From Candidatus Latescibacterota bacterium (GTDB lineage: Bacteria; Latescibacterota; UBA2968; UBA8231), in assembly GCA_965261395.1 (NCBI GenBank), contig OZ253462.1, positions 2,784,001-2,848,000 of the forward strand: 64,000 nt of DNA. The letters are read 5' to 3'. The translations under genes were made by a program, and so were the position numbers. The stretch's first letter is position 1; each line of letters opens with the position of its first letter. Below are positions 9,681 to 41,337 of this stretch, piece by piece. Under the pieces are notes generated by a model. It had not been told where the DNA came from. It was given only the letters and a program-made list of their open reading frames with translations, and ran no database searches.

Positions 9681-10154
9681 TTAGACCTCCATGAGTTCTT
9701 GGGGGGTACAGATAGTTGGTGGTTCGTACCCAAAGGATCGGCAAATGGCCTCAATTCGAGGACGAAGTACAGCATTGGCAATATGCGTACAATTCCAGGT
9801 TAGCAGGTATTCCATGTCGCAAACGGTCGCAATTGAGATGTGTAAGGCATCCACTTGGGCCTTCTCAGATAGAGGCACTTGGCGGACCAACGCATCGGCT
9901 AAAGTCTCAACTGATTCGGTGACAGCAAGTTGCCGGATAGCAGCGATCATATCCAAACGCGCTTTCGCGAGAACCGCGTCTCCCGCTATACACTCATTGA
10001 TGACAAATTGCGAAATGAAAAGGTCAAAATTTTCGCGGCGGTCGTTCCACCAATCGTGGGTCAATTGCTGGTTTGCCGCCGTGACCAAATCACGACTCGG
10101 TCTCGATGTGAGATAACTGATGAAGCTGGTTTCGATGTAAACTGTAGATTTCAT
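9681..10154 (-). CDS. PIN-domain (VapC-like) toxin
   Basis: VYIETSFISYL, ISQFVINE, DALHISIA, YLLTWNCTHIAN acidic PIN motifs. Confidence 0.85.
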   Translation of the reverse strand: MKSTVYIETSFISYLTSRPSRDLVTAANQQLTHDWWNDRRENFDLFISQFVINECIAGDAVLAKARLDMIAAIRQLAVTESVETLADALVRQVPLSEKAQVDALHISIATVCDMEYLLTWNCTHIANAVLRPRIEAICRSFGYEPPTICTPQELMEV

Positions 10155-10164
10155 AATCTTGGAA

Positions 10165-13100
10165 TCACTTAGCCTCAACCGATTCGCCGTTATTTTCCAT
10201 ATCGGCATACGCTCTGTCAAGCTCTTGCTGAATTGCGAGCGTGATTCCTATAGCCGTCACCATTCGGCAGTAAGTGCGGATGTCGTCGAGGTCGAGGCGG
10301 CGGTCTCTGCGATCTTTCAACCACTTATCGCAGACTTGGTAGCCGCCAATCTGATATTCCTGAACTTCCAAGGCAACAGGACCGAAGTACTGCGTCTTGT
10401 TGACGTACATGCGTTGTTCTCCGGCGTCATAGCGAAAGCCCTGTGCCTTCGTCCGTGCAACGACCGCGTTGCCTTCGCCCTCAAACCGGCAGGTCGGCGG
10501 GTCGAGTTCCGGCGACTTGAGAAGATGCAGGTCGGCCAATCGAGTGCCGAGAGCGGCGAAGTTGGTAAACAACGCTCTGTCCTTTGTGAACGGAATGCGC
10601 GGGAAGTCGGTCCGCAGAAACTCGGCGTATTGCTCGCGGTAGGAAGGAGCATATAGAATGGCGTATATATAGTGGAAAATTTCCTCGGGTGAGGGTGCTC
10701 GGCCATGCGCCTCTGTTAGAGCTGCGATTAGTTTGGAGTTCAGGTTCGGTCGTCGGTCGTCGGCGGTGAGATAAAGAAGGTAGAGGGGGAAGTTGTAATC
10801 GATGGTCTTCAGCGAAACAGCGACATGTCCGGAGATGCCGGCTGAGACGAAAGCGTGTTGCCAAGTTCCCACATGCTCAACACGCTTCGGCACCATTAGT
10901 GCCAGATTCTCCCCGGCCAGCATGTGCCGCATGATTGTGCTTGGCCTGGAGATGAACCCGTTTGACCGACCGGTATAATAGGTGTGGCGCACGTCAAAGG
11001 GCCGATACAGGATTGGAACCACTTTTTCGCGTGTGGGGCCGGAAGCGAGCAAGTCTTTCTGTGCCATCGTCACTTTCCAGCCCTGTGCATCTTTGCCGAG
11101 TTGGAAAGTATGACGGGCCAGTTCCGGGTCCATCCCCGAAAAGAGGATGACGGTATCCCACGATCTTGCTCTGACCAGCAAATCGTCAGGCGGTCGCGCG
11201 CGGTCACGATGCCGACATTGTTGACTGGGAATACATCGGGAATGGAAACAAACCGGCGATACTTGGCTTCGAGCGCATCATCACGCGGCGCGAACAGATA
11301 GGACGGCGAGGCCGGGTTTATCTGTTGCCATTCGGTATTGCCTCGGTTATGGGCAGCCAGCCAGTCATACTTGCCCTCACGGGTTCCGTATAGCTCGGCG
11401 TGATGGACCCGAGTATCGCACTCTTTTTTGCTGTTGCGCTTGACGAAAAAGGCAATGGCCACACCCTGCCGAATATCAAAGACGTTCTGGTCCAAACTCC
11501 CACCGGGGCCAGTTTCCTTCTTCAGCGAATTGCCGTGCAGATCGAGAATATAGATGTCGTCGAAAGTGTGCATCAGGCTCTGGCGCATGCCGCGAAAGGT
11601 TGGGTTGTCGAGGTAGCTGTGGTTGGTGATCATGCCGACGACGACGCGTCCGGCTTGCTCAATTTTCCACTGGGCAAAACGGAGAAACTTGACGTAATCG
11701 TCCTGGAGCCATTTAGGCTGTTTTTCACCCAGCGGCTTTCCATCCACCTGCTTGTAATCCTCAATCAACTCCCGTATCCAGTCCCCCTTGTTACTCGAAT
11801 CGCCCGAATAGGGCGGATTGCCGAGGATGAGCAGGATCGGCGTCTGTCTCTTGACTTCGCCCGCCAAGCGGGATTCCGCGGCTAAGGCAGAAAGGCCGGG
11901 CAAACGGCTCTCTTCCAGTTCGTCTGTGTCGAGGGTATTGGTAAGATAGAAAGGAACGCGCTCGTCGTTGGCGAGACGGTGGCCGAGTTCCTCCAGAAAA
12001 AAGCTCATCTTGAGGTGGCCGACCGCGTAGGGTGCCATCATCAACTCAAGGGCATAGAAATTCTGGAGGATATGCCGACGGATAAAATCCTCTTTTCCGC
12101 CGCTGCCGTACTTGGCCTCAAACTCGGCGACAGCTTCTTGGGCGGCACGAGCGACAAAAGTCATGGTGCCCGCCGCTGGATCGAGCAACGTCACACCATC
12201 AGAGGCGAGACCGTCGCGCTTGTCGAATTCCGTCTTGAGTAGGCCGTGCAGGGAACGCACGATGTAGCCAACTACTGATTCGGGCGTGTAATACACCCCC
12301 CGCCGCTCACGCTCGTCGGGATCGTATTGCGCCAAGAAAGTCTCGTAGAAATGCACGATCGGATCGCTGCCCTTGCCCTCGCGGTAGTAGGCATTGAGAA
12401 TGCCGGGCGCGTCGGCCACGGCCAGGACTTCGGCGAGGTCGTCAACGCACCAAGCGAGCGGATCGGGCAAGTCGTCGAGCGAGATGAAGCGGAACAAATC
12501 GCGCAGGACGCCGATGGTGTGCGGGATGTTGTCGAACGCGGCGCGCCGATTGAAGCCATCGCCGGCGCGGGTGCGGGCGGCGAACAGGCCATAGGTAATG
12601 GTCTGGGCGAACAGATCAGCGAAATCTTCGGGCGTCAGCGAGCCAATGAGGTAGGTTTGGAAAGCCTCGAAGAAGCCGGCGAGCATACCGGGATTCGCCT
12701 GTTCCTGTTGGAACTGCTCGCCGATCACATCGCGGAGGAGGCGCGTGCGTTTGGCCAGTTCGACAGCGAGAGATTCGGCGGTAAACGTCTGGGGTAGCGC
12801 AAAGTCCAAGAAGCGGTCGAGCAAGGCGTAGAGTTCATCTGGGTTTTCGAGCGGGGGCGTGGTGTGCACTGCGTTGAGTATAAAGGGCCGACCTGCCAGG
12901 ACCGTCTGGACGAGATCGCCGTTCCGATACAGGCGGAATTCGAGAAAGTTGGTGAGGATAAGGTTCGGAAACGTAGCGCGATAGCGTTTGAGTTGTTCGG
13001 AATTTCCGATACTATCCAGCCGCTCTTCGGTCGGCTTCTTCGCCTCGACATAGCCGATGATCCGGTCCGTCCCATTCCAGAGACGGAAGTCTGGGTTGCC

Positions 13101-30926: not shown

Positions 30927-31013
30927 TAATTCCTCCCTTGGTGGATGATGGCGGTTCGCAAAGCAGAAAGCTAAATAGCATATTTACGACCGCCCCACAA
31001 CACTGGAGATGCC

Positions 31014-31790
31014 ATGCTCGCCCTCGAACCCATTGCACCGGACGCCATTGACCGCGCCGCGGCCCTCTTTCACCGCGACGGTTTTGCCGTTGTCACCGAC
31101 GCGCTGACTGACGAACAATTTGCCTATCTCACGGAAGGTGCACACCGCGTCGTTGCCGAGCAGACCGCCGCCATTCCGTTAGAAAAAGCCAACCGGGGCT
31201 TTGCGCGCTATTCCTTTGGCTCGCAGATCCACCATCCCGAATGGGCCATGCTCGCGGACTTGCCGACCATTTTGCCCATTATCGAAGCCATTTTTGCCAG
31301 CGACCAGTTTATATGCAGTGGTGCCGGCGGCGATTATTCCCTGCCCGGCGCAAAAATCCAGCACCTGCACCGCGACATGTCCGACGTGATTGGCGACCCT
31401 GAGCAGCGCGTCACCATCCTGGACGTGCCCACGCCCTTTATCGTCGTCAACTTTCCCATGATCGATTTTAGTGCGGAAAACGGAGCCACGCGCTTCATTC
31501 GCGGCACCCACCGCTCGCGCCAACCCATTCCCAGCCTCGCAGACGAACCCGCCTGGATGCAGCACTCTATCGCCTGTGCGCCGGCCCGCTCGGCCCTCAT
31601 TCGGGATGTGCGCTGTTGGCACGGCGGCACAGCCAACACCTCTGAAGACGTGCGCATTATGACGAGCGTCGGCTATTATGCGCCCTGGTTTCGCCGACCC
31701 CAAGGAGATGGGGAAATGCCCCGCGCCCTGTACGATGATCTTTCAGAACGCGGCAAGACACTGTGCCGTTACATTGTTGCGTTAGACTGA
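31014..31790 (+). CDS. PhyH family dioxygenase
   Basis: QHLHRD, NGATRFIRGTH, CWHGG. Confidence 0.85.
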   Translation: MLALEPIAPDAIDRAAALFHRDGFAVVTDALTDEQFAYLTEGAHRVVAEQTAAIPLEKANRGFARYSFGSQIHHPEWAMLADLPTILPIIEAIFASDQFICSGAGGDYSLPGAKIQHLHRDMSDVIGDPEQRVTILDVPTPFIVVNFPMIDFSAENGATRFIRGTHRSRQPIPSLADEPAWMQHSIACAPARSALIRDVRCWHGGTANTSEDVRIMTSVGYYAPWFRRPQGDGEMPRALYDDLSERGKTLCRYIVALD

Positions 31791-34700
31791 GTTTTGGAGA
31801 ATCGTTTTCACGTCTAGCCGGTGAGTCTCCACAAACCGGATACTTGTCTCTTCTTCTCCCAACTTCAGCGGCACCTCAAGATCGTCCGAATCCTTCAAAG
31901 CATCATGCAGATTATTTTGGGCAATTGTAGTTTCTTGGTACTTTATAAATTCTTTGTACTTTGCGGTGCATACTGGACATAACGCCAAATATTGAGCTGC
32001 GTGTTCCTGGTGGAAATAGGCTCTTGAAAGAGCCTCCACCGCCTCAAAGTAGTATTCGCCGTCTCGCTGTTTGAATGGCATTTCATCTTTGCAAATCTGA
32101 CATATCATCTTGCCGGAATCCTTCGTATATTGGTTTCTAAGATCAGTTTTAGGGTCAATAGCTCCTTGTGAAATTCGGACGTTTCTTGGTCGCTCCTCGT
32201 ATTCTTTATCAGAAGCTTCATCGAGTTGTTCCTTAATTTTTTCTTTTCTACGGTTTGGATTACTTGATGCTCTCTCTGGAAATGTCGGCCTCTGCTTTTT
32301 CGCCTTCTGCTGCTGAATAAATTCTTTCACCGCTTCGGGATCTTCTTTATTTACCCTTGCAAGCTCTTGAGCTTGCTCGACGGAATCAAATCCGATACTT
32401 TTAGCAGCTTCTTCCTTGCGTAGATACTCTATAGTAGCTTCTTCCTTTTTTTTTCGTTCCTGTTCCGCACGATCACGCCTACTTTTTCCAAATTCGACTG
32501 CTTCTAACCATTGTGCTCTGAGCCTATATGAGGATAGGAAATTTTCTGGGAGCAATTCTTCAACAGCTTCGGAAGGCTTAACAAATTTCTCTTCACCGTT
32601 TTCTACTTGCGGTACCCAATTTTTTTCTATTAAACGATGAACAAGAGTAGAATTACCTTTTCTTGTATAAGAACTGGCATTGGGTCTATACTCAGCTTTG
32701 AGACAATCATCAGATAATTCATTCATCGTATTCCAGATAAGTTGAGACTTCATCAAGTCGTGTTCATTCAATAACACATCAAACTCCGGTATATCATAGT
32801 CCCCACTTATCTCATAGTGGGTTATTCTATCTCTATATTCTTTTAAATTTGCCGGATGATTCCATGATACATCTTGTTTTTTAGCACATAGTTTAGTTCG
32901 TGCACCAACTGCTTCTACAAACTTTCCGATCTTCTCGGCACTAATCCCACAGTTTTTGTACTCTTCGGATAATGCCCAGCATTGCACATAATTTCCGTGG
33001 CGCAAAGAAAAAGAGAATGTCCGACGTTGTGCATCGTCGCCTAACGCTTCATAATAGGCTGATAGTCCAGTTTCATAGAATGGCGAATCAAGATAAACTT
33101 CGCTCGGCTTACCCCACTTTCCATCAGTCAGTTTGAATATAGAGTAACCTTTGAACATGTCTGCCTGTTCGGGATATTTCTCCACAAAATCAATGAAGCG
33201 CTTGATGTCCTTAATTTTTGATGCAAGTTCTTCGTTACTTCCATATCTATATCTATCCCTCAGAATAGCCTCAATTCGCACTTTCTCACCTACTTTACGA
33301 ACCCCGATTTTCTTAAGAAAATCGAGGGCTTTATCCTGTTGATTTTTGTCTTTACCTGACTCATAGAGGCCCTTGGCGACGCGAGGCATAGCTTCATCAC
33401 GCTCCACCCCATCGCTTGGAAAATAGCAAGCCGTTCCTATCCTGTACTTCTTATCGCTGCAGCGAATAATGAGAAGGTTTCGTAATCTGTAGGATCTGTC
33501 TCTTTCTAATTCACCCAATAACAAAACATAGAATCTCTGATGCCAATCGTATGTTTTTCTTTTTAGCCATTTTATTATCGTATCAGGCTTTTTAGATAAT
33601 TCATCTACAAGATCTGAGGTCGTCCATCGTGTGATCTCCAACATGAATAAAAAACGATCTTCCCGCTGGTTTCGTTGCGGAGGGTTTGCAATCCAAAGCG
33701 GAGGGGAGTGTCCATCGCCTATGATCTTCGCCAAATCTTTGTCTTCGATAATATCGGACAGCCGTGCTGCCCCTCTAAAAACATCCTTTGCAGGAGCATG
33801 ACCTCCCTGTTTCATCGGGACCAATTCTTCGTTATTGAACACCTCAACTAGTCTATCCATAATTGGCTTGTAGAACCAAGATAGACTGTCTTGATCACTA
33901 GGGAGCGTTGCCAAAAATCCTACGGTCAATAGCCCTCGATTACGTATAGCAGTCATTGACTCCGCGATTAAATTCGCCAAGTGGTCTCGCAGTTCATCAT
34001 TTTCCGGACAATTGCGAACGCTATCACGAGCAACGGTTGAGGCAAAGGGTGCGTGGAGATGAAATCGCAGATTGGACGTTTCCTTTTCGGCAGGGAAGTA
34101 AATGGAGACTTGCCCCGGCTCTAACGACTTTATTCTCCATTGAACACTTTGGGATCGCTCTTGTCCTTTAGTTGGTCTTTTCGCAACCTGTTCTTGTTCT
34201 CTCTCTAAAAGGAAGGCTATGGCAATTCGGCACGATTTTAACTCACCTTTTTCGTCCTTCACCTCAACTTCTTTTTCAAACCGAAGAAAAGAGACTGAAT
34301 CCGGTTCCGGGTATCCTAGACGCTGGACAAGAATCTCAACTCTGTTTTCCTGACCTGTTTCTCTCCGCTCGATAAAACCCTCAGTCAAATCAGGCAGCCG
34401 ATATTCTATTTTTTTGATATTGCTGAGGAAGAGAAGCGTACTTTCGTCCAACTCCTGTAGATTTCTTTCTATTTCATCACGAGCTCTTTCAGGTGGCTTT
34501 GCGTCATTATCAAAAGGGAAAAAGAAGTAGGTCTGTTTCTCTCCCCGAGGACAGAAAGCCAATTCTTCCGTATCGGGCACGACCAAATCACGAATGCGAA
34601 AATGATATTCGCCCGATGCAATTTCAGGCGTCTCTGTATAGGCAAATACAGCCTTAAAACCAACACCAAACTTGCCGATGCTGGTTTGATCCTCTCTCTT

Positions 34701-34970
34701 TGTGCTGGAGCCGATGCTTGTAATGGAGTCCACATCCTCTAGAGTGAATAGTTGAGCTCCGTTGTGTTCAAATTCGACACTGTCCTCTCCGAGAGTGAAG
34801 CGCACCTCTGTTGCGTGAACATCCTCAGCATTCTGTAGAAGCTCATAAATGAAGTGCGCGTTGTCGGGATATAGATCGGTTAGTAAACGTCTGATGCCGT
34901 CATCAAAGCCGTTTTCGCGATTCGCCTCTACCCACTTCAAACGTTTCTGTCGTAATTCTTCCAAGCTCAT
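31782..34970 (-). CDS. Sacsin-N-like GHKL ATPase with C-terminal HNH-like Zn-finger domain
   Basis: YELLQNAED, HNG, IGKFGVGFKAV, FHLHAPF; C-terminal ICQIC...YFEAVE...LALCPVC. Confidence 0.82.
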   Translation of the reverse strand: MSLEELRQKRLKWVEANRENGFDDGIRRLLTDLYPDNAHFIYELLQNAEDVHATEVRFTLGEDSVEFEHNGAQLFTLEDVDSITSIGSSTKREDQTSIGKFGVGFKAVFAYTETPEIASGEYHFRIRDLVVPDTEELAFCPRGEKQTYFFFPFDNDAKPPERARDEIERNLQELDESTLLFLSNIKKIEYRLPDLTEGFIERRETGQENRVEILVQRLGYPEPDSVSFLRFEKEVEVKDEKGELKSCRIAIAFLLEREQEQVAKRPTKGQERSQSVQWRIKSLEPGQVSIYFPAEKETSNLRFHLHAPFASTVARDSVRNCPENDELRDHLANLIAESMTAIRNRGLLTVGFLATLPSDQDSLSWFYKPIMDRLVEVFNNEELVPMKQGGHAPAKDVFRGAARLSDIIEDKDLAKIIGDGHSPPLWIANPPQRNQREDRFLFMLEITRWTTSDLVDELSKKPDTIIKWLKRKTYDWHQRFYVLLLGELERDRSYRLRNLLIIRCSDKKYRIGTACYFPSDGVERDEAMPRVAKGLYESGKDKNQQDKALDFLKKIGVRKVGEKVRIEAILRDRYRYGSNEELASKIKDIKRFIDFVEKYPEQADMFKGYSIFKLTDGKWGKPSEVYLDSPFYETGLSAYYEALGDDAQRRTFSFSLRHGNYVQCWALSEEYKNCGISAEKIGKFVEAVGARTKLCAKKQDVSWNHPANLKEYRDRITHYEISGDYDIPEFDVLLNEHDLMKSQLIWNTMNELSDDCLKAEYRPNASSYTRKGNSTLVHRLIEKNWVPQVENGEEKFVKPSEAVEELLPENFLSSYRLRAQWLEAVEFGKSRRDRAEQERKKKEEATIEYLRKEEAAKSIGFDSVEQAQELARVNKEDPEAVKEFIQQQKAKKQRPTFPERASSNPNRRKEKIKEQLDEASDKEYEERPRNVRISQGAIDPKTDLRNQYTKDSGKMICQICKDEMPFKQRDGEYYFEAVEALSRAYFHQEHAAQYLALCPVCTAKYKEFIKYQETTIAQNNLHDALKDSDDLEVPLKLGEEETSIRFVETHRLDVKTILQNSV

Positions 34971-37900
34971 TTTGTTCCCTCAATGTTGAGAATCCCATAC
35001 GCCACCGGCTCAGCCACAATATCGATTTTCTCCTCGGCCCTATCCAACTCCTCAGCGCGCCTGTTATAGTCAGCCTCTGCTCGGCCTATCTGCGACTGCC
35101 GCATTCTCTGTATGTTCTCATCACTTGCCTTTTCAAGCTGCTCTCTGAGAAGTGCCATCTGCGCCCGATGGCTCGTCGCCAAACTCTCTCTGCGGTACGC
35201 TGCCAATTCCTCAGTCCGTTGCTGGTGTTCTGTCCGTGCCTCAGACCACAGCCGATGATGCTGTTCCTCCAGTTCGGCCCACTCGCCCTGTTCCCCCGCT
35301 TCGGCATCCTCCGCCCTCTCTAAAAGGCGGCCCAAATACGGCTCTACTGCATCCGACGAGGCAACCAGCTTGAGCTTTAAATCTTCCCGGATGCCGTAAA
35401 ACCGCCACTGATAAACGACGAATTGATACCGGCCAGTGGGCACATCATCGTCCCGCACCTTCAGATGTACGACGGCCCGTTCATCACTATCAAAAAATCG
35501 GGCCGCCTGTTTCACCAAAGGATGCAGCGGCATGACGAAAGCAGCCTCTGGATTCTGTGTGGCACAATCCTGCTCAAAGGTTATTTGCAGATACTGGTCG
35601 TCCCCTTTCAGCCACGTCTCCCATTCTCGATAGGTGCTCTGCCTAGGAAGTTTTTGGAAATCGCGCAACAAACGGTTTCGTGCATCCTGTGCAAGCCTTA
35701 GCGTTTTCAGAGGCTTCTCGCCGAGAATGAAATCCCGCTCTTCCCCACATCGCTGCTGTAAATAGAGCGCGACGAGCCTTTGCAACGAACCCGGCGTCAA
35801 CCAAAAGCTCGAAGCGTCTCTAATCTCCCTCTTCATCTGGTCTTCAGGGAGGCGAATCCCAAAAAGCTCCATCTGCTTCTGTTCCAACCCTTCCTGTTCT
35901 TGTATCAAGCGAATTTCATTGTCTGCTAACTGCTGGAGTTGGGCCTGACGCTCCGCTTCGCTCAAGGCATAGTTCTCGGCAATGTTCTTTATTTCTCTGG
36001 AAATCTCCCCGAGGATCTCTTCGCTAGAGCCGAGAGCCTGCTCAAATACGCCGATGCGTTTGAGGCAACGCTCATAAATGTCCGCGTCAACAGTCCCCGG
36101 CGTAATCAAGTTGACGATGGCGACATTCGGACTCTTCTGGCCGTTGCGGTCAATGCGACCGATCCGCTGCTCAACACGCATCGGATTCCAAGGCAAGTCA
36201 TAGTTCACAATGCAATCGCAGAATTGGTAATCCAAGCCCTCGCAACCAATCTCTGAAAACAGCAAGACATCGAGAGCATCGCTGTCCTCGCGCGGCTTCT
36301 CAAACAGACGCCGCATTTCAACGCGTTCCTCATCCGGCGTCCCGCCGTGGACCATGGCGACGCGCACACCGTCTGCCTTGAGCTTCTCATAAAGATAATA
36401 CAGCGTGTGGCGAAAGCTGCTGAACAGCATGACCTTGTTGTTGTCCAAGTCTTGCTTCCCCCGGATGACTGTACGTAGTGCCTCAAACTTTGGATCGCGA
36501 GGATCAAGCCCACGTGCTTTCTCAAGTACACCCTCGATATGGGATCGGATCGCGCTGACAGCATCACTTGGGGGGACGGGTTCCCCATCGTCGGCTTCCT
36601 CCCATTCCAATTCGTCAAGCCGGCGATTCAGAATGCTCTCGAGGAAGGGGATCAATCCATACAAGCAACTTGCGGCCTGACGTCTAATCGTGGTCATCAT
36701 AAATTTGATATTTCTATCCCCGTGAAGCCGACTGAATATGTCCGCCTGAACAGCGAGTAATTCGTCGTGAAGCTGCTTTTGGCTGGGAGTGAACTCAACA
36801 TCTCTCGTCTCCGGCTTCCTCACGGTGAATTCCCCAATATCGCGCCGCCGTGTCCTGTTGATCATGCTCGCAAGAGTATGCAGCGCTTCCATATCCGTAA
36901 TGAGTTGGATACGTTCATCCGCAGCTACGCAGCCCTCAGCAAGTTGCCCCCTGACCCGCTTAAATTCAGGATTGCGGCTGAGAATGGCTCGTCCCCAACC
37001 CGTAGCGGCCGCTCCGTCAAGCGCACCCAGGGCTCGATCCGTCCAATCCGCCGCTTGGGTCCGCGCATGATCCACCGCCTTATTGATAAACGGATTCGGC
37101 GCGGCCATGTGCTCAAAGCTCTCCATATCCTGAATCAGATCGGGCCTCAGCACATTTAGCAGCACAAACAGGTCTTCGCTGCCTAGCTGGATCGGGGTCG
37201 CGGTTAAAAAGACCGCAGCCTCGGCGTAATCACAGAAAAACCGGACGGCCTCTTGATAATTGTTCGGATTGCGGATGTGATGCGCTTCATCTACGATCAC
37301 GAGATCGAAACGCGGCGGCGGATCCAAATCTAATAGCCCTTTTCCCCGCCTTCGTCTGCCCTCTGGCCCGTAAAGAAGTTCTTTGTTAAACAACGAGTAT
37401 GGTAGAATCGCTTTCTGATACTGAACGGGCCACTCGCCTTCTAGATCGATCTCCTTGATGCAGTACCTAAGCGTTGGGCCGTCCAAATGAGTGAACTGTT
37501 CGCCAAACCGCTTCATCTCACTTCTCCACTTGCCCTCGGTCAACAACGGACGGGGACATATAATGAGTACAGATTTGATCTCCCGCCGCGCTTGCAACTC
37601 CCGCAGGATCAATCCAGCCTCAATGGTCTTGCCAACCCCGACGCCATCCGCGATCAACAGACGCGGACGGTCTGACCGAATGAACCTCAGTACGGGCCGG
37701 AACTGATACGGGATGAAATTGACGCGCGCCGCGTTCAGCGAATACAACGTCGATAGACTGGGATGACGGATCTGTAGCGCGGTTAGGTAAGCGTGAAACA
37801 GGTCGCACGAAAGCGGCTGCAACTCGTCAGCGGGCTGATCCGCGGCCTGCAACTGGGAGGCGTAATACGTCTGTACGCTGCTACCCATAAATACCTCAAC

Positions 37901-38833
37901 CCGATCTTCGGCCTGTCCCGATAGCACCTTCATCACCGCACCTCTCAGTGAGGGATTGGACTTCAAGACGACCATTTGACCCGGTGCAAACTCCGTTTGG
38001 TCTGGTATATACGTTGACACCTTTTCGGCTGTTTGCGAGGCTAGGGAGCGGTGGGTGTGCGTTAGCCCCTTTTCTTCGGTCATCTGCATGGCACTAGCGG
38101 CAAGCAGGCGACCGAGCAGTTCCAGATCGATCATTCGCGCATGTCCGCAGACAGCTAGTACCTGTCCAAAATGCGTATCGAGCGATTGGCGTATCTGGTG
38201 TTTTCCGTCCACGACATCATCGGTCATGTAGCGGACTAAAATCTCGGCTGCCTTGGCGAGATGGTAGAGCCCGATCAATTCGAGCGCGACCGCCTTGGCA
38301 TGGGCCGGTTCTTGTTCTATAAGATACTTCTTTTCAAAATCAGATTGGTCATCGCGCAGGCGAGAGATTTGTTTCAAGACTGCGCCGAGGTCGGTATAGC
38401 GCTTGCGGATTAGTCGTAGCCAAACATCAAGGACTGTCGCCCAAGTGCGCTTGTGCCAATTTTCCGAATCAACGGGAAGCTCAGCCCAAGGTTCTTTCTC
38501 CAACCACTGCTCTGCATCAGTCCCTTTGTCTCCCAATACGGCGAGGCTGCCCGCTCTCAATAGGAATTTCCCGGCATCGAATGGCTCAGCCGGACGGGGC
38601 AAGGCACGCAGCAAGCAAAAGGCATCAGCAGCGGCGCGTTGCAATTCCCTTTGTTTTTCCTCATCATGCGCTGCGCCCTCAAGCACGAGATCGAGCACAG
38701 CTATTTCCAGCACGTCAGCAGCACGTCGGATCAATTTTTCGTCTGCCAGTTTGTGCGAATTCTGTGCACGTTGAGCTAGGTTCAGCGCCTGTTGGCGTAT
38801 CTCTTCCTGTTCTTCAAGCAGCCAATGACTCAT
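34967..38833 (-). CDS. SNF2-family (RapA/DrmD-like) helicase with an extra ~260-aa helical N-terminal domain
   Basis: ADGVGVGKT, IVDEAHH, LTATP, CEGLDYQ, WNPMRVEQRIGRIDR; coiled-coil-like C-terminus. Confidence 0.88.
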   Translation of the reverse strand: MSHWLLEEQEEIRQQALNLAQRAQNSHKLADEKLIRRAADVLEIAVLDLVLEGAAHDEEKQRELQRAAADAFCLLRALPRPAEPFDAGKFLLRAGSLAVLGDKGTDAEQWLEKEPWAELPVDSENWHKRTWATVLDVWLRLIRKRYTDLGAVLKQISRLRDDQSDFEKKYLIEQEPAHAKAVALELIGLYHLAKAAEILVRYMTDDVVDGKHQIRQSLDTHFGQVLAVCGHARMIDLELLGRLLAASAMQMTEEKGLTHTHRSLASQTAEKVSTYIPDQTEFAPGQMVVLKSNPSLRGAVMKVLSGQAEDRVEVFMGSSVQTYYASQLQAADQPADELQPLSCDLFHAYLTALQIRHPSLSTLYSLNAARVNFIPYQFRPVLRFIRSDRPRLLIADGVGVGKTIEAGLILRELQARREIKSVLIICPRPLLTEGKWRSEMKRFGEQFTHLDGPTLRYCIKEIDLEGEWPVQYQKAILPYSLFNKELLYGPEGRRRRGKGLLDLDPPPRFDLVIVDEAHHIRNPNNYQEAVRFFCDYAEAAVFLTATPIQLGSEDLFVLLNVLRPDLIQDMESFEHMAAPNPFINKAVDHARTQAADWTDRALGALDGAAATGWGRAILSRNPEFKRVRGQLAEGCVAADERIQLITDMEALHTLASMINRTRRRDIGEFTVRKPETRDVEFTPSQKQLHDELLAVQADIFSRLHGDRNIKFMMTTIRRQAASCLYGLIPFLESILNRRLDELEWEEADDGEPVPPSDAVSAIRSHIEGVLEKARGLDPRDPKFEALRTVIRGKQDLDNNKVMLFSSFRHTLYYLYEKLKADGVRVAMVHGGTPDEERVEMRRLFEKPREDSDALDVLLFSEIGCEGLDYQFCDCIVNYDLPWNPMRVEQRIGRIDRNGQKSPNVAIVNLITPGTVDADIYERCLKRIGVFEQALGSSEEILGEISREIKNIAENYALSEAERQAQLQQLADNEIRLIQEQEGLEQKQMELFGIRLPEDQMKREIRDASSFWLTPGSLQRLVALYLQQRCGEERDFILGEKPLKTLRLAQDARNRLLRDFQKLPRQSTYREWETWLKGDDQYLQITFEQDCATQNPEAAFVMPLHPLVKQAARFFDSDERAVVHLKVRDDDVPTGRYQFVVYQWRFYGIREDLKLKLVASSDAVEPYLGRLLERAEDAEAGEQGEWAELEEQHHRLWSEARTEHQQRTEELAAYRRESLATSHRAQMALLREQLEKASDENIQRMRQSQIGRAEADYNRRAEELDRAEEKIDIVAEPVAYGILNIEGTK

Positions 38834-39624
38834 GGCGCACCTCCAGGTATGCGAGATGGAAGGTCACCGATGGCGCAAGGCAGATATATTGCGCTCAAGT
38901 CGCATGTTGTCGGGTATTCCAGTTTTCCCGCCATAGTTTGCCCTCGTGCCTGTAAATCTAGCTCATTGGGCTGCGTATCCCGAATCAGAACCCCAAAGAG
39001 CGCAAGTGCCTTATTTCCCGACTCAAGGAATAGCCCAACCGCTGCCTTGAATGATGTTTCATAGACCGGCCCTTTACAACGGGGTAAAAGCCACTCGAGA
39101 AGTTGACGAACCAAGGACAGATCGTTTGCTAAGTTGTCTATCTGGTGCATTAAACCACTCCGACCGCTCATTACACTCGGTGGCGTTTTGATGTCAGTGG
39201 ATGATTTCACCTCACCTAGCACGAGGCGTGTAGCCTCGCCCTCAACTATAAAGCCGACCAGATCTGCACCCGGAAGGCTAGCATTAGGATGCCGTTTGTC
39301 GCGTTCCGTGTTCCAAGGCCATGTGATTTTGTAGTCGCGACTCAGGTATGCTTCAGCCATTGCTTCGCCCACCGCCCAACTTGGTTTTTCGCTTATTTCG
39401 GCTGCCAGAATTTCCTCAAGGCTATCTCGAGCGAATCCCGTGTTGGCTAAGTTTTGAAGATACGTTTCAAATTCGGCCTTACCTTCTTCATCGCAAAGCC
39501 GTGACGAAACTTCGTCGGACATAAACGAATTGAACGCATCGCCATCTTTCATGCTTACACCCCGCCAAGACACCTGACGGTCCTGTCCTTCGTAGTTTAC
39601 GGTTAATATATCTGATTCTGTCAT
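38830..39624 (-). CDS. HamA/DUF1837-like PD-(D/E)xK nuclease
   Basis: VGEAMAEAYL...RDK...LPGADLVGF...LGEVKSS motif set; ATGA overlap with the helicase gene. Confidence 0.65.
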   Translation of the reverse strand: MTESDILTVNYEGQDRQVSWRGVSMKDGDAFNSFMSDEVSSRLCDEEGKAEFETYLQNLANTGFARDSLEEILAAEISEKPSWAVGEAMAEAYLSRDYKITWPWNTERDKRHPNASLPGADLVGFIVEGEATRLVLGEVKSSTDIKTPPSVMSGRSGLMHQIDNLANDLSLVRQLLEWLLPRCKGPVYETSFKAAVGLFLESGNKALALFGVLIRDTQPNELDLQARGQTMAGKLEYPTTCDLSAIYLPCAIGDLPSRIPGGAP

Positions 39625-39705
39625 ACCCTCATCTCGCGGACCCTCAGCCGCGCTGCCGTTTTAATTTGCTCCACCAGCACCAGCACGGCCGCTTGGGGCA
39701 CTATC

Positions 39706-41337
39706 CTAAAAGAAATACCAATACATCGCGCCGTACACCACCAGCAACCCCACCGCTCCCAGCCAATAAACCCGATCCTGCTTACGGGTCGGCATCAGCG
39801 TCTCGTCGCCCCGCTCCAAGAGCACCGGTTTCTCGTCGCCAAACGCCAAGCTGAAGCCGAAAAGCAGCACGCTGGCCACGGCAAAAATGACGAAGGCCGC
39901 GTGTAGAAAGTGTATCTCCAAAAAGGCCAGTCCCAATCCCTCTTCTCCACAGACCAGTCGGTTGAGCAATGCCGAGTCGCTGACCAGCCACAGGAAGATG
40001 CCAAAGATGGAACCAGCGATCAGGGTCGCAAAGGCCCCTTTGCGCGTGGGCCGCTTCGACACCAGGCCCCATAGGAAACAAGCCACAATGGTGCCTGGTA
40101 TGTAGGAGGCGAACTTGGCCAGATACTCGTAGAGAAAGCGGAACTGCGGAATGACCACAATCGCCCACAACACCCCAATGACAACTATGACAGCAGATAG
40201 TATCCGCCCCGCCCACACCAAGCGCTGCTGAGTCGCCTCGGGCCGATAGGGCTGATACCAATCCATGGCAAACAAGCCCGAGGCCGCGCAGATCTCCGAG
40301 TCTAGCGAACTCATTAGCGCCGCGATCAGCCCGGCCAACACCAAACCCACCAAGCCAGTCGGCAGCAGGGTTTGCACCATTGCCGGATAGAGCTGATCCG
40401 GGCTGGAGACTTCGAGCAGCGGCTGCGGGCCCTGCGCCATGACATAGCCCATCAGCCCTGGAATCAGAATGATAAAGACCGCCACTACTTTCAGCAGCCC
40501 GGCCAGCAGCCCACCCATCCGCGCCTCGTGGACGCTGCGGGCCGCCAAGGCGCGCTGCACCATGACGTGGCTGGTCGCACCAAAGGCCAAAGCATGTATC
40601 GTCAGACCCAGCACCACGCCACTCCAAGGCACGTTGGGATGATCGAGCGGCTGCACCAGCGACAGCATGTCCCAATCGTCCGGCCCTTGTAACCCCTGCA
40701 TCCGCGCCTCAAAGACGTCCCAGCCCCCCAGATAGTCCAAGCCTATCCAGAGCATGGCCACGCCCCCGACAACCAACAGCAAGCACTGGACAAAGTCCGT
40801 CAAAATGACGGCGCGCAAACCGCCTACCATAGCGTACGGGCCGGCCGCCAGCGCCAAGATCAGCACCCCCGGCACAATCGACTCAAACCCGAACAGCACT
40901 TCCATCACCCGCCCGCCGGCGTACAGAGAACCGGGAATGCCGGCAAACGCAATGGTCACGAGGGTGAGTAATGAAAAGAAGCGGCGGCTTTCTGGACCGT
41001 AGCGCCGCTCCAAGAACTCCGGCGTGGTATATAGCCCCAGCCGCATGTACACCGGCAGGAAGACCGCCCCCATCGCCACGAAGGCCAACACTCCGGCTAG
41101 CTGGTAATTGGCGACCGCCAAACCAACGACAAAGGCCAAACCCGCTTGGCCGACGAACTGCTCGGCGGAAATGTTGGTGGCAAACATGGATGCGCCGACA
41201 AAGGGCCAGCGCATACTGCGTCCAGCGAGGAAGAAGTCGCTCGTGCCGCGGACGCGGCGGCTAGCCACAACCGCTATGGCGACGACCACGAGCAGGTAAG
41301 CCGCGATGATCGCACTGTCGAGCGCGGAAATGTTCAT
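39706..41337 (-). CDS. Sodium:solute symporter (SLC5/SSS)
   Basis: FFLAGRS, ATNIS, PEFLERRY, GGLRAVILTD, VQRAL, AALMSSLDS; many TM segments. Confidence 0.92.
   Translation of the reverse strand: MNISALDSAIIAAYLLVVVAIAVVASRRVRGTSDFFLAGRSMRWPFVGASMFATNISAEQFVGQAGLAFVVGLAVANYQLAGVLAFVAMGAVFLPVYMRLGLYTTPEFLERRYGPESRRFFSLLTLVTIAFAGIPGSLYAGGRVMEVLFGFESIVPGVLILALAAGPYAMVGGLRAVILTDFVQCLLLVVGGVAMLWIGLDYLGGWDVFEARMQGLQGPDDWDMLSLVQPLDHPNVPWSGVVLGLTIHALAFGATSHVMVQRALAARSVHEARMGGLLAGLLKVVAVFIILIPGLMGYVMAQGPQPLLEVSSPDQLYPAMVQTLLPTGLVGLVLAGLIAALMSSLDSEICAASGLFAMDWYQPYRPEATQQRLVWAGRILSAVIVVIGVLWAIVVIPQFRFLYEYLAKFASYIPGTIVACFLWGLVSKRPTRKGAFATLIAGSIFGIFLWLVSDSALLNRLVCGEEGLGLAFLEIHFLHAAFVIFAVASVLLFGFSLAFGDEKPVLLERGDETLMPTRKQDRVYWLGAVGLLVVYGAMYWYFF

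Follow-up and report, generated by a model that had tools for sequence, protein, structure and literature searches.

What would control a Hachiman-type nuclease whose helicase has been exchanged for a motor of another family? The question is raised by an operon of three minus-strand open reading frames (ORFs) in a 64,000-nucleotide (nt) stretch of DNA from a Candidatus Latescibacterota bacterium (UBA2968; UBA8231), hereafter the window (positions 2,784,001-2,848,000 of contig OZ253462.1, assembly GCA_965261395.1). In the model drawn for Hachiman, according to the parts of Tuck et al. 2024 (PMC12278908) on which we rely throughout, a Ski2 helicase restrains the nuclease through NAH, the N-terminal helical bundle of HamB, and frees it when ratcheting on damaged DNA. 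In the window, the nuclease gene (PDC-M23A, P0003; 38830..39624, 264 amino acids (aa)) encodes a HamA-like PD-(D/E)xK enzyme recognised by PADLOC and by its HamA fold. It is followed by the gene for a fusion protein of 1288 aa (P0001; 34967..38833), in which a captured HamB-type NAH nuclease-docking domain precedes an SNF2/DrmD-like motor core, and by the gene for a sacsin/Tiamat-like GHKL ATPase of 1062 aa (P0002; 31782..34970), assigned by Pfam, NCBIfam and PADLOC. Each neighbouring pair shares a 4-nt overlap, the M23A stop overlapping the start of the fusion gene and the start of the sacsin-like gene overlapping the SNF2 stop. A Hachiman-type front end is here combined with an SNF2-Tiamat-like module into one hybrid operon, which we regard as probably of the defence type and made by recombination between two systems.

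The fusion protein is a chimera with a sharp boundary, far beyond chance. Indeed, BLASTP aligns P0001 with a canonical PDC-M23B protein (P0030, 1060 aa) at 60% identity over 304 columns (E 3e-101), and the similarity stops at LLAASA(M/S)QM, near residue 253; past this point the two proteins share only short helicase-motif snippets (E of at least 0.035). With the PADLOC profiles, residues 10-272 correspond to positions 13-281 of the 1060 positions of PDC-M23B (E 1.6e-55), the profile PDLC04531 aligning to the NAH at its positions 13-272, and residues 282-1169 correspond to DrmD (PDLC02623, E 1.9e-119). The helical N-terminus closes with LLAASAMQM (Q250-M251), after which comes TEEKGLTHTHRSLASQ, and FAPGQMVVLKSNP begins at residue 282. 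Since unfused SNF2 relatives open with M-A-F-S-P-G-Q or M-L-N-Q-T-E-F-V-P-G-Q, FAPGQ marks the natural start of the SNF2 protein. The original prediction, made from the DNA letters, had described just such an arrangement, a helical N-terminus joined by a linker to the natural start of an SNF2 protein, and was right on both counts. Its range, 38050-38833, covers P0001 residues 1-261; the domain proper, defined by homology, fold and predicted docking, is residues 1-253 (38075..38833). The linker is made up of residues 254-279 (TEEKGLTHTHRSLASQTAEKVSTYIPDQTE; 37997..38074), the structural model of the N-terminal part having low confidence at its end, and the motor core, recognised by Pfam and PADLOC, takes up residues 280-1288 with the stop codon (34967..37996).

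Where does the N-terminal domain come from? With residues 1-275 as query, a search of 5.8 billion proteins yielded 342 matches at E <= 0.001, 120 of which were listed. These 120 consist of 26 copies of this SNF2 fusion (78-100% identity; 1265-1296 aa when complete) and 94 DEAD/DEAH helicases (PF00270; 54-64% identity) of 812-1075 aa, most of about 1055 aa, so that the domain is not confined to SNF2 proteins, as the original prediction had supposed. All three DEAD-type proteins scanned matched full-length PDC-M23B and HamB profiles at E 9e-59 to 8e-69, and both fusion proteins scanned matched DrmD plus PDC-M23B positions 18-280 only. The helicase core of P0030 (residues 288-716) aligns with the HamB chain 8vx9_B. 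In the fusions, the linker between Q[MI] and F.PGQ measures 30 residues in 16 of the 26 and 10 residues in five, the remaining five not matching the pattern; the long form, to which the window's belongs, is the short form with a 20-residue insertion.

The fold of the grafted domain points to the same source. AlphaFold2, supplied with 40 aligned rows, modelled residues 1-270 with 12 helices, a mean predicted local distance difference test (pLDDT) of 86 and a predicted template modelling score of 0.86. Foldseek placed HamB chains on top of its list, with query TM-scores of 0.58-0.61 vs at most 0.32 for all others, at a weak E-value of 1e-2. This was settled with VIA-align, in which residues 1-265 or 1-270 of the model superposed on HamB residues 6-318 with Z scores of 19.7, 18.3 and 17.6, the best unrelated match reaching 9.0; the NAH fold can thus be called HamB-type. 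Judged by these models, P0001 residues 1-253 fold like the HamA-binding NAH of E. coli HamB. That HamA is bound by the N-terminal bundle of HamB, which the original prediction had put forward, is stated by Tuck et al., who also report that HamB orthologues share the NAH bundle and that other Ski2 helicases are without it (PMC12278908).

The end of the domain is also the end of other proteins. Ninety-two shorter proteins match residues 1-260 of P0001 and several stop just past LLAASA.QM; five of them (P0376, P0379, P0380, P0387 and P0414), lying on contigs of 4 kb to 3.7 Mb, are NAH-only proteins of about 260-280 aa that end within some 25 residues of this motif. Breakage or recombination seems to have recurred at this domain boundary.

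Could the junction nevertheless be an assembly chimera of a Hachiman-type locus and an SNF2 locus? Metagenome-assembled genomes can be chimeric, and the G+C content (GC) varies along the island: the operon sits in a low-GC stretch between flanks of 0.57-0.63, with 0.50 for P0003 and 0.43 for P0002. However, GC is alike on either side of the junction in P0001 (0.536 and 0.542), the same in-frame junction occurs in four other species-level genomes, and it is found in 26 distinct proteins from many contigs. Moreover, contigs bridge position 38075 in all four sequencing runs examined, from four studies. Two of these contigs are without differences from the window (X1, 37718-39000; X2, 37718-38579), and either run may be the source sample; the other two are diverged variants, independent of the source sample (X6, 37953-38449, 28 differences; X18, an RNA library, 37878-38151, 20 differences). 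The protein matches, the other genomes and the bridging contigs have already refuted an artefact, to which we give practically no credence.

The X18 metatranscriptome contigs, 93-98% identical to the window, cover positions 37878-38151, 38139-38545 and 38722-39000, that is, parts of the NAH region, the junction and the M23A gene. They hint, though weakly, at transcription of a related operon, as such contigs cannot show transcription and DNA carry-over is possible. Scans of positions 31000-40200 returned four sigma-70 promoter sites vs 8.9 in shuffled sequence, and five intrinsic terminator sites vs 9.6. Sponge-metagenome runs, which contain 0.24-0.26 of the sequence words, give a hint of the habitat that we do not build on.

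The original prediction took the neighbouring gene to be HamA-like, and this proved correct. Residues 7-260 of P0003 match positions 6-259 of the 263 positions of PDC-M23A (PDLC04527, E 4e-99), and the protein reaches E 1.6e-5 with the HamA/DUF1837 profile. A sequence search against the chains of the Protein Data Bank (PDB) did not find HamA, the best hits being unrelated proteins (E 0.33); it is the fold comparison, not the sequence search, that brought out the likeness to HamA among PDB structures. With a model of pLDDT 94.4, VIA-align gave Z 16.1 for 8vx9_A (236 residues), 13.9 for 8vxy_A and 12.5 for 8zue_A, and the best match beyond HamA was PaqCI at Z 6.6. In 69 aligned relatives E87, E138 and K140 never vary and D121 hardly does; the catalytic site E87/D121/E138/K140 is intact.

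Does this nuclease bind the transplanted domain? We predicted the complex of P0003 (69-row alignment) with NAH residues 1-262 (40-row alignment) in three runs, with three controls. The interaction prediction score from aligned errors (ipSAE) had a median of 0.78 (0.75-0.81), vs 0.00 for the best control; the runs have at least 79% of their contacts in common and both partners have a pLDDT of at least 82. In a calibration that is rough here, our own alignments having been used, the corresponding mark was reached by 116 of 157 solved complexes and by two of 215 mismatched pairs. The predicted contacts fall in three patches of M23A, 48-84, 108-119 and 169-204. In Hachiman, the NAH binds HamA residues 30-63, 102-117 and 159-199, with 3,038 Å2 buried (PMC12278908), and the modelled M23A patches parallel these three. 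M23A is hence predicted to dock on the grafted NAH, and the nuclease interface foreseen in the original prediction is found by the complex model.

What, then, is the motor to which the NAH was joined? The catalytic motifs of the core are intact: it carries a Walker A motif (GVGVGKT, 397-403, with K402), a DEAH box (515-518) and motif VI (QRIGRIDRNGQ, 889-899), and Pfam places SNF2-rel_dom (PF00176) at residues 392-578 and Helicase_C at 782-898. Residues 285-1288 match thousands of SNF2 proteins. Among the matches listed, the closest non-fusion proteins are 71-75% identical and about 1018 aa long, and 12 of 120 bear an N-terminal Swt1-like HEPN domain (PF18731). In 72 genome loci, SNF2 proteins that stand alone or are fused to HEPN share 64-75% identity with residues 280-1288. 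We gathered 79 genome loci with P0001 as query. Because a sacsin homologue directly follows the SNF2 gene in 74 of them (and three of the other five have no DNA beyond the SNF2 gene), SNF2 and sacsin genes make up a conserved two-gene module that occurs in many phyla, as the original prediction had assumed.

The N-terminus of the SNF2 protein is the variable part of this module. In the 76 loci with a 5'-complete SNF2 gene, it is occupied by HEPN_Swt1 in 39, DUF4926 in four, a CopG-like domain in two (an assignment below the Pfam cut-off), an unassigned extension in six and an NAH-type domain in seven, and by nothing in 18. Since the same slot holds an HEPN RNase in most relatives, these counts suggest that the SNF2 N-terminus is the output position of the module. 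Four of the seven NAH-type loci are intact and three degraded, and M23A ORFs occur, among the 79 loci, only in the four intact ones, with a remnant in L006.

How was the nuclease side acquired? A related genus has a canonical PDC-M23 locus (L103) in which the M23A and M23B genes share a 4-nt overlap like the window's; its M23A is 65% and its NAH 62% identical to ours. This fits the uptake of a single continuous block that comprised the M23A gene and the first ~253 codons of M23B. As to direction, a Hachiman-type locus may have lost its motor, or an SNF2-sacsin module may have gained a nuclease-plus-dock cassette. In a tree of the SNF2 core, the eight NAH rows form one clade (Shimodaira-Hasegawa-like support 100), nested among module-less forms, the HEPN forms making up a separate clade; the fusion has a single origin. 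We surveyed 168 genomes of the phylum: an NAH match occurs in 17, and the fusion is confined to the window's genus, where genome G000 carries it twice and six of 30 other genomes have it (four intact, two degraded). Canonical PDC-M23B forms, 63-68% identical, belong to another genus of the same class.

The second, paralogous operon of G000 (C1:4818790-4828125; locus L082: 2790-12125) encodes an M23A of 264 aa, 84% identical to the window's, and a fusion of 1272 aa with a 10-residue linker, the NAH being 80% and the core 87% identical to the window's. Its sacsin-like gene is broken into two ORFs, one of 283 aa and one of 1241 aa.

To which known system does such an operon belong? As in Hachiman (E. 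coli ECOR31; 8vx9, 8vxa, 8vxy), a gene for a HamA-fold nuclease lies directly upstream of one for a large superfamily 2 (SF2) ATPase with NAH. The HamA D-E(X)K PD-(D/E)xK nuclease is present in P0003 and the NAH is present by fold in P0001, HamA-type binding being a prediction. However, the window's motor is SNF2/DrmD-like and without the RecA2-NAH coupling, WH*, CAH and OB of HamB, the operon has a third gene, for the sacsin-like ATPase, and similarity to classical HamA is weak (E 1.6e-5). We rejected strict membership of Hachiman, as the core is SNF2-related (PF00176, DrmD) and not Ski2. The proposal that a Hachiman-like front end had been put on an SNF2 protein is supported: the docking module was kept and the motor changed, with the nuance that the donor is the divergent Hachiman-type candidate PDC-M23 and not classical HamAB. 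The SNF2 motor may control the M23A nuclease.

The operon resembles PDC-M23 in its full-length M23A, in an NAH matching M23B positions 13-281 (54-64%) and in the 4-nt A/B overlap, and differs in that an SNF2 core stands in place of the HamB-like helicase core (M23B positions 282-1060). A complete PDC-M23 was rejected, M23B being covered over 269 of 1060 positions only; we found no paper on PDC-M23 in the open full-text literature. DrmD of DISARM is the best-scoring named SNF2 profile for P0001, but membership was rejected at an NCBIfam DISARM_DrmD (NF038317) score of 321.6 vs a cut-off of 610, and a scan of the three operon genes showed no drmA, drmB, drmC or methylase among them.

The sacsin-like partner resembles Tiamat TmtA in its sacsin-type GHKL N-terminus and its middle region. 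It matches Pfam SACS at residues 26-126 (E 8.5e-21), NCBIfam P_loop_sacsin (E 3e-27), PADLOC TmtA over residues 3-790 vs positions 7-795 of 1302 (E 9e-57) and sacsin chains in the PDB (E 9e-11), with the motifs ELLQNAED at 43 and GKFGVGFK at 99. Curated Tiamat bears a C-terminal PD-(D/E)xK nuclease; among nuclease profiles the C-terminus of P0002 gave a weak mREase_IV match only (E 0.0058). It contains a Cys-rich stretch, CQIC (957)...(H-x-E-H)...CPVC (998), at window positions 31971-32102, and its language-model features resemble HNH clusters (Atlas score 0.91, a lead only). In the sections of a 2026 preprint on which we draw (10.64898/2026.09.30.754977), Tiamat-like Type IV-A proteins have an HNH-like C-terminus, said to be usually without catalytic residues, and the Cys stretch of P0002 would fit this class. 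The same sections describe, as Type IV-B, Tiamat-like neighbourhoods with helicases, including Swi/Snf ones, often nuclease-fused; the SNF2-sacsin module is possibly this Type IV-B. HEPN (Swt1-like) fusions with SWI2/SNF2 ATPases are listed in the part of Anantharaman et al. 2013 consulted (PMC3710099). These HEPN-SNF2 and SNF2-Tiamat-like pairs have the same SNF2 family with a sacsin homologue behind; unlike the HEPN-SNF2 fusions, the window's slot holds a nuclease-docking domain and the nuclease gene is separate. No association of such pairs with HamA or NAH is mentioned in these portions of the two sources.

Hachiman parts are recombined elsewhere in nature, in AbpAB and in HamMAB (a protease-HamA fusion with a metallo-beta-lactamase-like protein), according to the relevant passages of PMC12278908 and PMC13069673. 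AbpAB and HamMAB, as described there, keep the HamB Ski2 helicase and alter the nuclease side, whereas the window keeps the nuclease side and alters the motor. In the open full-text literature we met neither an NAH-SNF2 fusion nor HamA-like genes paired with SNF2 motors, and SNF2 is not mentioned in the preprint of Ragucci et al.

How might the hybrid work? The chassis is a widespread two-gene module, with an SNF2 (DrmD-like) translocase gene and, behind it, one for a sacsin/Tiamat-like GHKL ATPase. The SNF2 N-terminus would serve as a slot for an output domain; in most relatives this slot holds a Swt1-type HEPN RNase. In one Latescibacterota genus it holds the PDC-M23B NAH instead, which would have been captured in a single DNA block with the upstream M23A gene. 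M23A would dock on the NAH in the manner of HamA on HamB and stay latent while bound. Once the SNF2 motor has engaged foreign or damaged DNA and hydrolyses ATP, the sacsin-like ATPase acting as a possible co-sensor or clamp, the nuclease would be released or repositioned and the DNA degraded. A DNase recruited in trans, by way of a transplanted docking domain, would in this way have taken the place of a fused RNase effector. Docking, latency and motor-driven release are steps that we infer by analogy; a hybrid operon with an NAH-docked, motor-controlled M23A nuclease is, in our judgement, the best explanation of the locus, and a likely one.

Several points weigh against this explanation. The NAH of HamB is driven through its contact with Ski2 RecA2, and drive by an SNF2 motor is something that we infer from the analogy. 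Linkers of 10 or 30 residues fit a tether as well as an allosteric link. As the HamAB complex has been solved, the M23A-NAH score may reflect a remembered likeness and not binding, and the predicted interface residues of neither protein are conserved above the remaining ones: identity is 0.66 at the NAH interface vs 0.62 elsewhere (p 0.44), and 0.32 vs 0.36 for M23A (p 0.46). The SNF2 tree was made with FastTree from 70 rows and rooted at its midpoint. Because three of the seven NAH-type loci are degraded, without M23A, NAH or both, the arrangement is not stably kept. Finally, the evidence is wholly computational and the organism an uncultured metagenome-assembled genome.

Some of these points lead to another idea of how the parts cooperate: the NAH may merely tether a constitutively competent M23A to the translocating SNF2 motor, with no latent state or release, and DNA would be cut where the motor stalls or collides, as with type I or type III restriction enzymes. 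The 10 vs 30 residues of linker suggest a flexible tether; the Ski2 RecA2-NAH contact, through which RecA2 ratcheting passes to the NAH of HamB and breaks the HamA interface (PMC12278908), has no counterpart in the fusion; and HamA's nearest non-Hachiman structural neighbours, PaqCI and FokI, are type IIS nuclease domains, which are active once brought into contact on DNA. In two genomes of a related genus, an NAH-only ORF lies immediately upstream of a type I hsdR, which would be in line with such a delivery, but these type I restriction-modification (R-M) contexts look decayed, with hsdR truncated in one and M23A absent in the other. Besides, free or activated HamA in Hachiman degrades DNA indiscriminately and needs restraint (PMC12278908), an always-active tethered nuclease would be toxic, and the predicted docking uses the same three patches as the latent HamAB complex. 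We hold simple tethering to be rather unlikely, and prefer a latent nuclease controlled by the motor.

The two R-M loci are worth describing by themselves. In genomes G085 (L105:5907-7533) and G092 (L106:2959-3825), NAH-only ORFs of 280-288 aa, 76-79% identical to the M23B N-terminus and ending at the same domain boundary, are placed between type I R-M hsdS and hsdR. L105 has an M23A gene upstream and an hsdR of 584 aa; in L106, M23A is absent and hsdR intact. These ORFs are either a relic or a third motor context; the loci look decayed, and we draw no conclusion on function from them. The NAH has so far been met in three contexts: with a Ski2 core (canonical), with an SNF2 core (the window) and as an NAH-only ORF near hsdR (two genomes). 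A broader and distinctly more tentative idea, which we favour less than its contrary, is that M23A with the NAH-coding 5' end is a portable effector cassette drivable by unrelated SF2 motors, and the SNF2-sacsin N-terminus a general output slot for a fused RNase or a DNase dock.

Is the hybrid in use, or is it a recent neutral or mildly harmful chimera nearing loss, in which SNF2-sacsin works as before and M23A-NAH is baggage? The fusion is found in one genus only, and the degraded loci drop M23A and NAH together, through 5' deletions (L002, L004) or frameshifts (L006), while SNF2 persists, accompanied by the sacsin gene in L002 and L006. The sacsin gene of the second copy in G000 is split. 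However, in five pairwise comparisons at synonymous divergence (dS) up to 0.31, the ratio of nonsynonymous to synonymous substitution rates (dN/dS) was 0.16-0.45 for the NAH, 0.21-0.43 for M23A and 0.16-0.19 for SNF2. As these values are well below 1 for both the NAH and M23A, the fusion is under purifying selection. The catalytic residues are preserved, M23A and the fusion gene are present as two intact paralogous copies in one genome and as further intact copies in four others, and the 4-nt overlaps are kept across all three genes. Mere decay of an accident appears quite improbable, and a hybrid with a motor-controlled nuclease remains the preferred explanation.

The third gene has a history of its own. 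In the window, GC is 0.43 in the sacsin-like gene vs 0.54 in the SNF2 gene. In locus L001 (sacsin gene 9869-12979) the SNF2 core is 97% identical to the window's (dS 0.11) and the sacsin gene 54% (dS about 1.0); since the one is near-identical while the other is strongly diverged, this suggests that the partner gene was replaced by recombination, and that the sacsin-like gene evolves or is exchanged independently of SNF2. In other loci of the module, a conserved ORF of 202-222 aa, which is not in the window's operon, fills a gap between the SNF2 and sacsin genes (10 of the 14 gap-bearing loci examined). It begins with M-D/E-N-Y-D-P and contains LRV.FPDGT (L008:8901-9509, L011:9056-9673, L013 and L014:9056-9664, L019:9155-9787, L020:9060-9710, L024:9159-9791, L029:9060-9728, L072:9053-9676 and L060:4092-4745), and may be a third component of some SNF2-sacsin subtypes.

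In conclusion, what is new here is the NAH-SNF2 hybrid itself, assembled from known kinds of parts. Its practical value is limited for now, the hosts being uncultured. It amounts to a natural swap experiment, in which nuclease and dock were kept and a Ski2 helicase was exchanged for an SNF2 translocase, and it lets one ask directly whether the NAH works as an autonomous adaptor and whether the type of motor matters for nuclease control. It also ties PDC-M23 and the SNF2-Tiamat-like pairs, both poorly understood, to a system with solved structures. If the idea of a portable cassette were true, HamA-type activation would need generic motor motion or tethering at the NAH and no Ski2-specific allosteric path, and the SNF2-sacsin N-terminus would be a general slot for a fused RNase or a DNase dock. 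For defence systems at large, the locus indicates that effectors can be traded as a block of gene plus docking domain, and not solely as fused domains.

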